Positions 46,104-48,437 of a stretch of DNA of 64,000 bases are shown one piece after another. The DNA comes from Pseudomonas phage Pa_AttikonH10. A program made the translations under genes and the position numbers. The notes beneath the pieces are model-generated. The model had not been told where the DNA came from, did no database searches, and saw only the letters and a program-made list of their open reading frames with translations. The DNA is taken from the sequence record PQ741806.1; one strand, 5' to 3'. Within the stretch, counting starts at the first letter, position 1. Every line of letters starts with the position of its first letter.

Positions 46104-46161
46104 CTATGTCTGTTACTCTTCTAACTTCCGGGCATTACCGTCTTCCAAATAACGGATAGTC

Positions 46162-46178
46162 CCATTTTCTAGATAACG
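46162..46178. repeat. 17-nt repeat CCATTTTCTAGATAACG (copy 1, downstream of the MCP stop)
   Basis: Identical 17-mer at 20510..20526; on the minus strand it encodes RYLENG. Confidence 0.6.
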
Positions 46179-46193
46179 GTAACCCTTTCCAGC

Positions 46194-48437
46194 TCACGGC
46201 TTAAGATCAGCAAGCTTACCGTTGAACTGAGTTTCGCCCATGACTTTCTGGAAGCCAGTGATCTTGAACTCTAGCGCGAACGGAATGTTGTTGACGTGTA
46301 GGTTGAACGGAATGGCCGCGATTTCGCGAGTAACCTGGTGACCACCACGAGTGATCGGTAGGTCAGCGATAACAGTAGATACGTAGAAGAACTGGCCCCA
46401 GGAGAGGATGTCGTTTTCTTGTTGTACTGCGCGGGTCGGAATTACAACTAGCTTACCATCAAATAGCTGGTTGTTGGTGGAAACGATATCGTACTTGAGA
46501 TAAGCACCTAGAGTACGGTCGTCACCTTTAGTCATTAGATAGTTAGCAATCTCTTTGTCGGAGCAGAAGAGATACATCGGAGTTTCATCCTGGTTACCGG
46601 AGATAACACGGAAGGCAGCTTCAATGTTGGAATCACGGTGAGCCGGGAATAGCTCAGCTTTAACACAGTTTAGGATCGCAGCGCAAACGTCGTCCCAACG
46701 ATCTTTAGACTTGATGGTGTCGATGACTTTCTCAAGATCTAGTTCTTTGTAACGATAGGTCGGACGCATTACAGCGGATAGTGCACCTTCGATGATACCA
46801 AACTTCGGACGGTTGTAACCATTGTGTACAACTTCACGTAGTTGAGCAAGGTAGTTAAGCATGCGCTTAACAGCGTTGTTGCTGTTACGGATGTTGGTGT
46901 TAACAGTTAGAGCTTTAACAACCTCACCCGGACCTTCATCGGTCATGGTGTCCATCGGTAGAGTTACAGGAGCGTGCATCGGGATCGGATGACGGAACTG
47001 TAGTGCACGGGTCTGTAGTAGGTGACCACGCTGACGACGGTTAGTGTTGGTGAAGCGAGTATCTAGTTCGAAACCGATAACAGCTAGGTCAGTTAGCTGA
47101 TCTAGAATAGCTTTAACAGCCGGGTCAGCATTATCCATTACCTGGCCATCTTCGTTTAGAACTTTATCGACGTAAGTGTCGGTAGCACCAAACTTAGAAT
47201 CGCCTTTGGATAGGCTGATAGTACCACCAAAACCAACGCTTAGACGTAGGCTTAGTTTAGCAGTCTTAAGGTCGTTAATAACGCCATCAGCTGAACCGTC
47301 GATGAAAGTGGTATCGCCACTAACAACAAGGTCATCGCTATCGAAACGGATAACTGCGTTCCGGGTATCACCAACTAGATCGGGCTGGAACACAGCGCGA
47401 GGTAGACGGTCAACCTTGAACTTAACAACTTTACCGCCGAGTAGAACGAATAGGTTCTTTAGACGACCAGCCGGATCAATGGTGTCAGAAACTTCAAGCA
47501 TGCCACGCTGAATGAGTAGGTTAGCATTGGAGTTACCCATTAGATCAAGACGTACGTTCGCTTTTAGCGGAGCAGTAGTGATAGTTAGGTTCTGCTCGTT
47601 CTTGATGGTGTACGGAGGAACAAGAGCCGGGTCTACGAAGAAGTCAGCATTGGAACCAGCCGGATCTAGGGCAGGAATTAGTGCAATGCTTTCGTCGTCG
47701 AGGATGGAAGGATCACGATAGGCTTCTACCATGTTCACTTCTTCGTTATCCATCTTAACGCCGGATACTTCGTGGTAAACGTCTTTCATTACAGCGATGT
47801 AAGGAAGAACCTGAACAACACCACCTTCAATCGGGTTGATAACGGTGGTCGGATAGATACGCTCAGCGAATTCATCCTGACGGCTAGCAGCTAGGTTATA
47901 ACCAATAGTTACAACACGGAAATCACGCTGTGACTTCTCGTTATAGTTCTCTAGGCCAACACCATTTTCGAATACTTGAATGCCACCAGCAGGGCCATTG
48001 AACTGATGCTGTACAACCTTAACATGATCTTCATTAGAAGCTTTAGCTTTGGTAATACCACGTAGTGCACGGATATATTTAGTTTCATCAGCACAGGCGA
48101 TAGCAGCCATGGTAGCAGCAGTGATTTGGTTCTCACGGACACGTTCTTCACGAGCACGTACTTGAGGATCACTGGAACTTACTCGTTCGAAACCATAGTC
48201 GTTAACGAGCATTTGCATTTTGTTATAAATTGCAGCGGCATCTTGAATGTCGGTAGCTTGCACGGTACCGAAGTTTTCATGTGAAATGCTGCTAATAAGG
48301 GAACGACCTTGACTAACAACGCTGTCATTTAGACCAATTTCACTTTCTAGGCGGCCAATGAAATCTTCCATTGAGAAGACTTCGTAATTCTTTTCGCCTT
48401 TGTGTTTAAACAGTTCTCTTAGGGCATGTACGCTCAT
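46194..48437 (-). CDS. major capsid protein (phiKZ gp120-like)
   Basis: 747 aa, the length of the phiKZ gp120 precursor. GC content and codon usage are markedly higher than in neighbouring genes, as expected for a highly expressed gene. A strong terminator lies downstream at 46084..46103. Confidence 0.88.
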   Translation of the reverse strand: MSVHALRELFKHKGEKNYEVFSMEDFIGRLESEIGLNDSVVSQGRSLISSISHENFGTVQATDIQDAAAIYNKMQMLVNDYGFERVSSSDPQVRAREERVRENQITAATMAAIACADETKYIRALRGITKAKASNEDHVKVVQHQFNGPAGGIQVFENGVGLENYNEKSQRDFRVVTIGYNLAASRQDEFAERIYPTTVINPIEGGVVQVLPYIAVMKDVYHEVSGVKMDNEEVNMVEAYRDPSILDDESIALIPALDPAGSNADFFVDPALVPPYTIKNEQNLTITTAPLKANVRLDLMGNSNANLLIQRGMLEVSDTIDPAGRLKNLFVLLGGKVVKFKVDRLPRAVFQPDLVGDTRNAVIRFDSDDLVVSGDTTFIDGSADGVINDLKTAKLSLRLSVGFGGTISLSKGDSKFGATDTYVDKVLNEDGQVMDNADPAVKAILDQLTDLAVIGFELDTRFTNTNRRQRGHLLQTRALQFRHPIPMHAPVTLPMDTMTDEGPGEVVKALTVNTNIRNSNNAVKRMLNYLAQLREVVHNGYNRPKFGIIEGALSAVMRPTYRYKELDLEKVIDTIKSKDRWDDVCAAILNCVKAELFPAHRDSNIEAAFRVISGNQDETPMYLFCSDKEIANYLMTKGDDRTLGAYLKYDIVSTNNQLFDGKLVVIPTRAVQQENDILSWGQFFYVSTVIADLPITRGGHQVTREIAAIPFNLHVNNIPFALEFKITGFQKVMGETQFNGKLADLKP

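Follow-up and report, generated by a model that had tools for sequence, protein, structure and literature searches.

What is a conserved, peptide-coding frame doing behind the stop codon of a capsid gene when it has no start codon of its own? The question is raised by the 3' end of gp120, the gene encoding the major capsid protein (MCP), in a stretch of 64,000 nucleotides from Pseudomonas phage Pa_AttikonH10 (PQ741806.1), here called the window. Over 601 bases around the gp120 stop codon, the window, which has the reverse complement orientation, is 100% identical to the phiKZ reference (AF399011/NC_004629) and, to judge from this match, its DNA is that of Pseudomonas phage phiKZ or of a near-identical isolate. 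Behind the TGA of gp120 the reading frame continues for 26 codons that encode a triple peptide repeat. Comparison with related phages argues, with a probability of about 0.75, for selected, low-level readthrough of this UGA, which would yield a minor, C-terminally tagged gp120 isoform. Readthrough itself, its frequency, the residue inserted, the outward display of the tag and its function are predictions drawn from these comparisons.

The 3' end of the capsid gene

The 747-aa open reading frame (ORF) at 48437..46194 on the minus strand, stop included, is gp120, the 'major head protein'. The elements of its 3' end are the following.

46197..48437, minus strand: coding sequence of gp120, the MCP; 747 codons, ending in ...KLADLKP (ORF list; 100% DNA identity to PHIKZ120, 'major head protein')
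46194..46196, minus strand: MCP stop TGA, proposed to be leaky; the next base is G and the last sense codon is CCG (Pro) (sequence and lineage comparison)
46116..46193, minus strand: putative in-frame readthrough extension of 26 codons, AGKGYRYLENGTIRYLEDGNARKLEE; a linker of 4-5 residues and then three 8-residue repeats
46161..46178, minus strand: repeat 1, RYLENG, which holds the 17-mer common to gp143
46137..46154, minus strand: repeat 2, RYLEDG
46116..46130, minus strand: repeat 3, terminal, RKLEE; 0-3 residues from the stop, as in other carriers of the repeat
46113..46115, minus strand: second stop, TAA, which closes the extension
46082..46105, minus strand: intrinsic terminator of the MCP transcript, a 10-bp GC-rich hairpin and a T-run, 3' of the extension

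A preliminary description of the locus had placed the in-frame peptide between the MCP stop (46196-46194) and a terminator. The frame proved exact, running through to the TAA at 46115-46113, and a hairpin with a T-run was found at 46105-46082. This hairpin is kept in relatives, at a distance from the second stop that varies from 8 to ~45 nt. The extension reads RYLENGTI, RYLEDGNA and RKLEE, the three units that define the repeat module treated below. The same description had pointed to a 177-aa ORF (21018..20485, gp143) ending in the same motif, RLLENGAARYLENGQIRYLES, and to a 17-mer, CCATTTTCTAGATAACG, shared by both loci. The ending and the 17-mer were verified, and the latter occurs exactly twice in the window, at positions 20510 and 46162 of the plus strand.

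For one genome taken by itself, the open frame and the 17-mer carry little weight: in 21% of the genes in the window, 26 or more codons are open after the stop and, by our own estimate, ~0.2 shared 17-mers are expected by chance somewhere in 64 kb. It is the conservation across lineages, as read from the alignments, that exceeds chance. The extension is without annotation in nearly all records.

Conservation and selection of the post-stop frame

The MCP 3' end was compared in nine cultured lineages (phiKZ, PhiPA3, PS119XW, Phabio, 201phi2-1, Viktualia, Psa21, D6 and Noxifer), in which the C-terminal 200 residues of the MCP are 62-85% identical to those of phiKZ; the lowest value recorded for the MCP C-terminus was 61%. 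They represent the genera Phikzvirus, Miltoncavirus, Pawinskivirus, Phabiovirus, Serwervirus, Tepukevirus and Noxifervirus, with Viktualia and D6 unassigned to a genus. MCP 3' ends from IMG/VR and metagenome contigs added 14 extension-bearing lineages. In all 23 distinct lineages with a short extension, the MCP ends in TGA, followed by 26-30 in-frame codons with a common pattern: a linker, R-x-x-E-(D/N)-G-x-x, R-x-x-E-x-G-x-x, R-x-x-E and a stop. Frame 0 is open for these 26-30 codons in 23/23, and the +1 and +2 frames reach 26 codons in 1/23 and 5/23, respectively. Differences in length are of whole codons only. The codons that directly follow the MCP stop are variable (GCT, ACT, GAT, AGT, AGG, CTG, AAT), and no ATG, GTG or TTG stands between the TGA and the first repeat in any of the 23. 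An extension of the frameshift type, with a slippery site and a -1 or +1 shift, does not fit, as the conserved peptide lies in frame 0 and the +1 and +2 frames are stopped in most lineages. An antisense gene was likewise rejected, since no reverse frame over the extension is consistently open among the 23 lineages.

The substitutions are those of a coding sequence. Mean pairwise differences at codon positions 1, 2 and 3 are 0.38, 0.31 and 0.52, and the ratio of nonsynonymous to synonymous differences per site (pN/pS) is 0.53 in frame 0 versus 0.86 and 1.29 in the shifted frames. Ten disjoint lineage pairs give a pS of 0.43, a pN of 0.20 and a ratio of the corresponding divergences (dN/dS) of 0.36 (Fisher p = 3e-10), and the synonymous divergence (dS) reaches 0.64 in the extension and 0.51 over the last 100 MCP codons. 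Arg is kept through changes between CGN and AGR codons and Leu through TTA, CTA and CTG, and Gly appears in all four of its codons. At the level of nucleotide comparison, this pattern marks a translated peptide rather than a dead remnant or an element acting as RNA or DNA. An alignment of related genomes had been suggested in the preliminary description as a check; in it, the post-stop frame and the repeat codons are kept over several genera, with synonymous-biased substitutions and whole-codon indels.

Six related lineages (L034, L035/L125, L038, L123, L124 and L126/L127) are without the extension, and the MCP of all of them ends in TAA. In L035 and L125, the TAA is followed before the terminator by an 8-codon stub, ASRLRLEP, which is akin to a last repeat of the type ARRLER and looks like a decayed extension. 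Among the distant chimalliviruses Ea35-70, RTH11, RSL2, pVa-21, SA002 and FLC9, the motif was found in 0/6, and the MCP stops are five TAA and one TGA.

Stop codon choice and context

The stop codon of the MCP gene varies together with the sequence behind it. TGA accompanies the motif in 23 lineages and is never found without it, TAA stands without the motif in six, and one lineage, L037, combines TAA with a long extension; the association is significant when lineages are counted as independent (Fisher p = 1.2e-5), a count that leaves shared ancestry uncorrected. The contrast extends to close relatives: L036 ends in ...LLQQP-TGA followed by the motif, and L126 in ...LLQQP-TAA followed by one codon. 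GC content was considered as a cause of the TAA/TGA split and rejected. Only a minority of phiKZ genes stop at TGA (61 of 285 ORFs of at least 100 aa, ~21%), and 15 of 19 other abundant virion genes end in TAA.

In E. coli, UGA terminates weakly when the next base is A or C, and a C-terminal Pro, Gly or Ala slows termination. Across the 23 lineages, the base after the TGA (+4) is A in 15, G in seven, C in one and T in none, a context that is only moderately leaky. The last MCP residue is Ala in ten, Pro in nine, Gly in three and Val in one, that is, Ala, Pro or Gly in 22/23; Pro also precedes TAA in most extension-less lineages, and a C-terminal Pro is not, therefore, specific to those with the extension. 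Programmed or selected readthrough predicts this combination: a peptide under selection, placed after a stop, lacking a start and varying together with the stop codon that leaks most. The proposal of the preliminary description that programmed UGA readthrough gives rise to a minor extended capsid protein thus gains support from the comparison (conservation, dN/dS of 0.36 and TGA in 23/23).

The triple repeat as a terminal module

The module consists of three 8-residue repeats, R-x-x-E-(D/N)-G-x-x. In a profile of 50 diverse instances, R3, E6, G8, R11, E14, G16, R19 and E22 are the invariant positions (Arg and Glu strictly, Gly nearly so), and the regularly spaced NG and DG dipeptides suggest short strands joined by tight beta-turns. 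When the invariant positions were back-translated into a search pattern (~39 bits by our own estimate), 73 IMG/VR loci matched, against less than one expected by chance. Most of these carriers are proteins of 140-880 aa in which the repeat ends 0-3 residues before the stop, which is also the position of the third repeat in the MCP extensions and in the gp143 family. They include large baseplate or distal-tail proteins (phrog_1101, with faint similarity to the megatron protein of gene transfer agents), a beta-helix tailspike, fibrous repeat proteins and virion structural proteins. A second carrier was present in the same locus in 4/73, the loci being short. No model of the repeat was found in Pfam, PHROGs or NCBIfam, no chain in a profile search of PDB sequences, and no published description in literature string searches, which returned noise only. 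The cultured matches outside the clade, Xoo-sp13 and CRP-4, have internal copies in unannotated proteins. Other carriers that seemed to lie behind a stop without a start (L112, L082, L101 and similar loci) were rejected as ordinary genes with high-GC open leaders.

Two placements differ from the C-terminal one. In L083, L093 and L102 from IMG/VR, the repeat stands at the extreme N-terminus (e.g. MTRRLLEDGSVRLLENGSARLLED), ahead of fibre-like, Gly/Ala/Ser/Thr-rich repeats that run for hundreds of residues, from which it follows that the module works at either protein end. In a virion structural family of ~550 aa (phrog_3287; L066, L087, L097 and L109 from IMG/VR), it is internal, near residue 392-396; no other non-terminal placement was seen to recur.

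gp143, the native carrier of the tag

In phiKZ, the tag belongs natively to gp143.

20485..21018, minus strand: gp143, a 177-aa protein of the DUF7941 type (phrog_2935, E = 9e-46; AlphaFold2 model)
20488..20550, minus strand: C-terminal triple repeat of gp143, RLLENGAARYLENGQIRYLES

The gp143 of the window is 99.4% identical to that of the phiKZ reference and 100% identical to that of isolates such as fnug and FBPa36. The MCP 3' region, by contrast, matches the reference at 100%. The source of the window may therefore be a phiKZ-like isolate or a corrected sequence, rather than AF399011 itself. Homologues of gp143 were found in 68 records, each from a phiKZ-like phage of Pseudomonas; in number and host range, these equal the records matched by the MCP 3' region. 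Out of 54 family matches, down to 34% identity, 53 end in the triple repeat, the exception being a partial fragment of 99 aa, and R157, E160, R165, E168 and R173 are invariant in 52 members. Loss of the MCP extension was not accompanied by loss of the gp143 tail: L091 and L100, in which the tail is retained, derive from the same contigs as L035 and L038.

Against Pfam DUF7941 (PF25613), gp143 scores 18.3 bits, below the cutoff of 27, and some homologues carry a precomputed PF25613 match. Its AlphaFold2 model (mean predicted local distance difference test, pLDDT, 89.3) has the DUF7941 N-terminal fold, matching phiKZ gp127 (9xqd_0) in Foldseek with E = 5.6e-7 and template modelling scores of 0.59/0.68; on the strength of this model, gp143 is a structural paralogue of gp127. 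The latter, encoded at 38562-39434 on the plus strand of the window, is a protein of the outer baseplate periphery. The modelled tail of gp143 has a pLDDT of 74-85 and isolated beta-bridges at an 8-residue period. A 2026 preprint on phage Goslar lists gp126, gp127 and gp143 as DUF7941 proteins, calls DUF7941 chimallivirus-specific and proposes that the segment after the N-terminal domain docks on the next protomer, giving rise to baseplate-anchored filaments. In gp143, the triple repeat occupies the position of this proposed docking segment. That the repeat is a generic DUF7941 linker was rejected, since gp126 and gp127 are without it. Among the DUF7941 proteins (gp126, gp127 and gp143 of phiKZ; gp22 and gp23 of Goslar), gp143 thus joins the tag to the DUF7941 N-terminal fold, whereas the MCP extension is a tail only, with no DUF7941 domain, and carriers of the repeat include many phages in which DUF7941 cannot be present.

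Two accounts of gp143 have been given. The 201phi2-1 homologue, gp228, was detected in virions by mass spectrometry. In the other account, published in 2026, gp143 acts as a modulator of the holin gp142 by way of its first globular domain, and TnSeq (transposon insertion sequencing) suggests that it is non-essential (PMC12894885); the TnSeq data, which are at gene level, include insertions within gp143 and nothing on the MCP extension. The virion and holin-regulator views stand side by side, and gp143 has no place in the published phiKZ virion atlas.

The resemblance between the two phiKZ copies of the tag is closer than the peptide requires. Repeats 1-2 of the extension and repeats 2-3 of gp143 are identical at 30/36 nt, in codon register and at an offset of one unit, and the RYLENG unit is identical at 17/18 nt, out of 1152 synonymous spellings. 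phiKZ gp143 ends in ...RYLES, and most other family members end in a repeat of the R-(E/L)-L-E type. These matches indicate gene conversion between the gp120 extension and gp143 in the phiKZ lineage, which explains the shared 17-mer. Elsewhere, the two copies show no special likeness to each other, and the extension has orthologous features of its own, such as a third repeat ARRLER or QRYLE, so that it is old and not a recent copy. The suggestion that a peptide-tag module had been duplicated was, in this sense, right and complements readthrough: the tag is a widespread terminal module of virion proteins, and its phiKZ copies bear the marks of gene conversion.

A relative with an immunoglobulin-like domain behind the stop

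In L037, a 220-kb viral contig (IMGVR_UViG_3300037502_002993; 1840-2130), a Pro/Glu/Thr-rich linker closes the MCP, and the stop is TAA. Behind this stop, the frame continues for 95 codons; a Big_2 immunoglobulin (Ig)-like domain begins at the second residue (Pfam score 30.1 bits, cutoff 22.8), and the last part is the triple repeat RLTEDGEMRTTEDGTPRYSEL. There is no start codon before the Big_2 domain, and the first candidate lies inside the domain. Judged from the gene layout, L037 looks like the same design with a larger displayed cargo, which argues for an appendage that is external and accessory, like the Hoc-type decorations. Ig-like domains are reportedly often added to phage structural proteins by recoding, a survey that Fraser et al. 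are said to have made in 2006. The likeness to such Hoc-like proteins lies in the Big_2 domain before the repeat tag, an adhesion-type appendage; the difference is that phiKZ has the 26-residue tag alone and no Ig-like domain.

The L037-type arrangement is also present in L088. In L034 (~1843), the MCP keeps a Pro/Glu/Thr-rich C-terminal linker, ...EEPTTEPEPTP, followed by TAA with nothing coding behind it, and from this sequence it looks as if a formerly attached domain had been lost.

Alternative explanations

The alternative that survives best, though improbable, is that the 26 codons give rise to a free small peptide, by non-canonical initiation or by termination and reinitiation, and not to an MCP extension. 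Selection of the coding type shows translation, not what the frame is joined to, and ribosomes terminating at the UGA would be positioned to reinitiate. However, neither ATG, GTG or TTG nor any other conserved candidate start precedes the first repeat in 23/23 lineages, and the codons after the stop vary. Reinitiation would give no reason for the strict use of TGA over TAA, the module is elsewhere a terminal appendage of a larger protein and, in L037, the post-stop frame begins inside an Ig-like domain directly after the linker.

A conserved RNA or DNA element (a structure of the 3' untranslated region, an attenuator, a terminator accessory or a protein-binding site) is very unlikely to be the object of selection. 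In its favour, the phiKZ extension RNA folds more stably than its shuffles (z = -3.1 to -3.5; mean z of -1.7 over 21 lineages), the terminator and a conserved promoter-like motif lie downstream, and one helix recurs.

46138..46179, minus strand: possible RNA helix, CCGUU (46179-46175, Arg codon of repeat 1) pairing with GACGG (46142-46138, Asp-Gly of repeat 2)

The two sides of this helix are paired in 86% of cells, versus 27-50% when they are slid as a control, but the identity of its core bases follows from the codons in any case. RNAalifold on 21 extensions gave a consensus of only five pairs and -2 kcal/mol, starting ~17 nt past the UGA, and an Rfam scan of 45900-46400 found no family near threshold, SECIS (selenocysteine insertion sequence) elements included, the weak matches being driven by the terminator. 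A stimulatory hairpin downstream of the UGA is thus possible, as far as the folding predictions go. A selected RNA element is, however, at odds with a third codon position that is the most variable, with synonymous sites that diverge as fast as those of the MCP, with the maintenance of Arg through CGN/AGR and Leu through TTA/CTA/CTG changes and with the variable distance (8 to ~45 nt) between the second stop and the terminator. It would explain neither why the encoded peptide matches a protein module of hundreds of proteins nor why TGA is retained.

Slimmer still is the chance of a dedicated decoding of the UGA, either as selenocysteine directed by a SECIS or through a phage suppressor tRNA. 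UGA is the selenocysteine codon, P. aeruginosa has the selenocysteine machinery, the extension RNA can form a hairpin 3' of the UGA, and the TAA of L037 would need a suppressor. SECIS-directed decoding is contradicted by the lack of any SECIS or other family in the Rfam scan and of a conserved hairpin architecture. For tRNAs, the window and the rest of phiKZ were scanned with ARAGORN, except for 100001-102704 (~2.7 kb); no UGA-reading tRNA was found there, the seven phiKZ tRNAs being Thr, Asn, Asn, Asp, Met, Pro and Leu, and the parts of the L037 contig that were scanned gave tRNA-His only. With no UCA-anticodon tRNA found and TGA not avoided as a stop, a suppressor tRNA or a reassigned stop does not fit; TGA ends ~21% of phiKZ genes and, because it is an ordinary stop genome-wide, the code is not reassigned in phiKZ. 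The capsid model, which ends at residue 747, also implies that termination predominates.

The preliminary description had left room for a decaying duplication remnant, here read as a 3' part of gp143 copied behind the MCP gene and never translated, which the 30/36 nt shared by the two copies, the unremarkable length of the open frame in a single genome and its lack of annotation would allow; this is refuted for phiKZ and has a negligible probability, as the extension is orthologous over 23 lineages and several genera, open in frame 0 only, with whole-codon indels and a dN/dS of 0.36 (p = 3e-10), as a dS of ~0.6 excludes recent recombinants sharing one copy, and as genuine decay (ASRLRLEP, as in L035 and L125, or nothing) is seen solely where the stop became TAA.

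Proposed mechanism and points against it

Under selected UGA readthrough, most ribosomes would stop at the UGA and produce the 747-residue MCP of the capsid structure, and a small fraction, ~1-5% by analogy with other leaky UGAs, would read on for 26 codons and produce gp120-X-AGKGYRYLENGTIRYLEDGNARKLEE. The likeliest decoder would be the host near-cognate tRNA-Trp, X being probably Trp. The C-terminal arm of the MCP (residues 728-747) forms the central six-helix bundle of the hexamers and, in pentamers, contacts the external protein gp244 (PMC11297242). From this location, the tag should emerge at capsomer centres, probably on the outside, and would be displayed at low occupancy, in tens of copies among ~1600 subunits. 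With lower confidence, it is probably a small docking or adhesion element. It could bind the partner of the gp143 tail, for instance a DUF7941 N-terminal domain, and so hold such proteins or filaments at the head; another possibility is that its ligand is a component of the cell surface.

A wider proposal can be made only tentatively, and we consider it doubtful. The triple repeat may be a general docking tag of phage virions, with the readthrough frequency setting the number of anchor points per capsid. Tagged MCP would then recruit the partner of the gp143 tail (e.g. the DUF7941 N-terminal domain), hanging gp143/DUF7941 filaments on the head, and, since gp143 is also reported to tune the holin, titration of gp143 by new tagged capsids could couple the timing of lysis to capsid production.

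Several observations weigh against selected readthrough or against the proposed function of the tag. The published capsid model ends at residue 747 (PMC11297242), and the phiKZ literature searched has no mention of readthrough; a product of a few percent would escape both icosahedral averaging and searches against annotated proteomes. L037 has TAA, which is not normally leaky, so that a second mechanism or a recent mutation must be assumed for it. The +4 context is of moderate leakiness, and no strong stimulatory RNA structure shared by the 21 lineages was found, only the 5-bp helix of largely codon-constrained bases. The dN/dS of 0.36 reflects a weaker constraint than in the body of the MCP (0.14 in its last 100 codons), and the loss of the extension in at least six related lineages makes it dispensable in some backgrounds. 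To these is added the uncorrected ancestry behind the association with TGA. As for the function of the tag, gp126 and gp127, the other phiKZ DUF7941 proteins, do without it, and gp143 has been described as a cytoplasmic holin regulator, not as a structural adaptor (PMC12894885).

Relation to known systems

The closest mechanistic parallel is found in Q-beta (Allolevivirus), where ribosomes occasionally pass the UGA that ends the coat gene and so make the minor extended coat protein A1, which has no separate start and is part of the virion. The phiKZ capsid gene shares with it a TGA, proposed to be leaky, and a start-less, in-frame extension that evolves as coding sequence. Q-beta is, however, a single-stranded RNA phage whose extension is a folded domain of ~200 residues required for infection, whereas phiKZ is a 280-kb double-stranded DNA (dsDNA) jumbo phage with a repeat tag of 26-30 residues that was lost in several relatives. 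Given the lengths (26 vs ~200 residues) and the repeat nature of the extension, homology to the A1 domain is implausible.

In tailed phages, longer capsid isoforms arise by frameshifting, as in gp10B of T7 and T3. Frameshift-extended capsid proteins are also made by Lactobacillus phage A2 and Listeria phages PSA, A118 and A500 (PMC5009743). These share with the phiKZ proposal a recoding at the 3' end of the MCP gene of a tailed dsDNA phage that sets the ratio of normal to longer subunits, and differ in that they depend on a -1 or +1 shift at slippery sites, whereas the phiKZ extension lies in frame 0 behind a stop. In poleroviruses and enamoviruses, the coat protein readthrough protein (CP-RT) is, according to PMC9553062, a minor capsid isoform made by stop-codon readthrough and displayed on the particle. 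It involves eukaryotic translation, long readthrough domains and long-range RNA stimulators, none of which apply to phiKZ. The phiKZ extension is homologous to none of these isoforms (Q-beta A1, CP-RT, T7 gp10B and those of A2, PSA and A118).

No report of stop-codon readthrough in a tailed-phage capsid gene was found in the literature searched, where the tailed-phage cases are of frameshifting. If true, the phiKZ case would be the first in the capsid gene of a tailed dsDNA phage, as far as that literature shows. phiKZ is a model for nucleus-forming jumbo phages and a candidate for phage therapy, and its capsid was solved at 3.5 Å without a hint of a second MCP isoform; readthrough would add a virion component that is invisible to averaging and to standard proteome searches, and would offer, at the C-terminus of the MCP, a natural low-copy site for display that engineering could exploit. 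The comparison also defines a short terminal repeat module common to many phage tail, spike and fibre proteins, for which a search for partners becomes possible, and is a reminder that conserved in-frame sequence behind the TGA stops of phage structural genes goes unannotated.

Minor observations around the locus

Two records have an annotation at the extension. In Viktualia (L009, 2478-2576), an automatic 'hypothetical protein' overlaps it in a frame that differs from that of the conserved peptide and is probably spurious, and in HPP-Temi (hit H107) a 'hypothetical protein' is annotated under the extension.

Downstream of the MCP terminator, by ~30-50 nt, and just upstream of gp121, the sequence (A/G)ATCTATATTAC is found at 46041-46053 on the minus strand of the window; in the 201phi2-1 group it reads ATTTATATCAT. 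The motif is also present in L002-L006, L009 and L011 and is kept in every lineage. It looks like an AT-rich early promoter of the phiKZ type, in which case an early promoter would directly adjoin the late MCP terminator.

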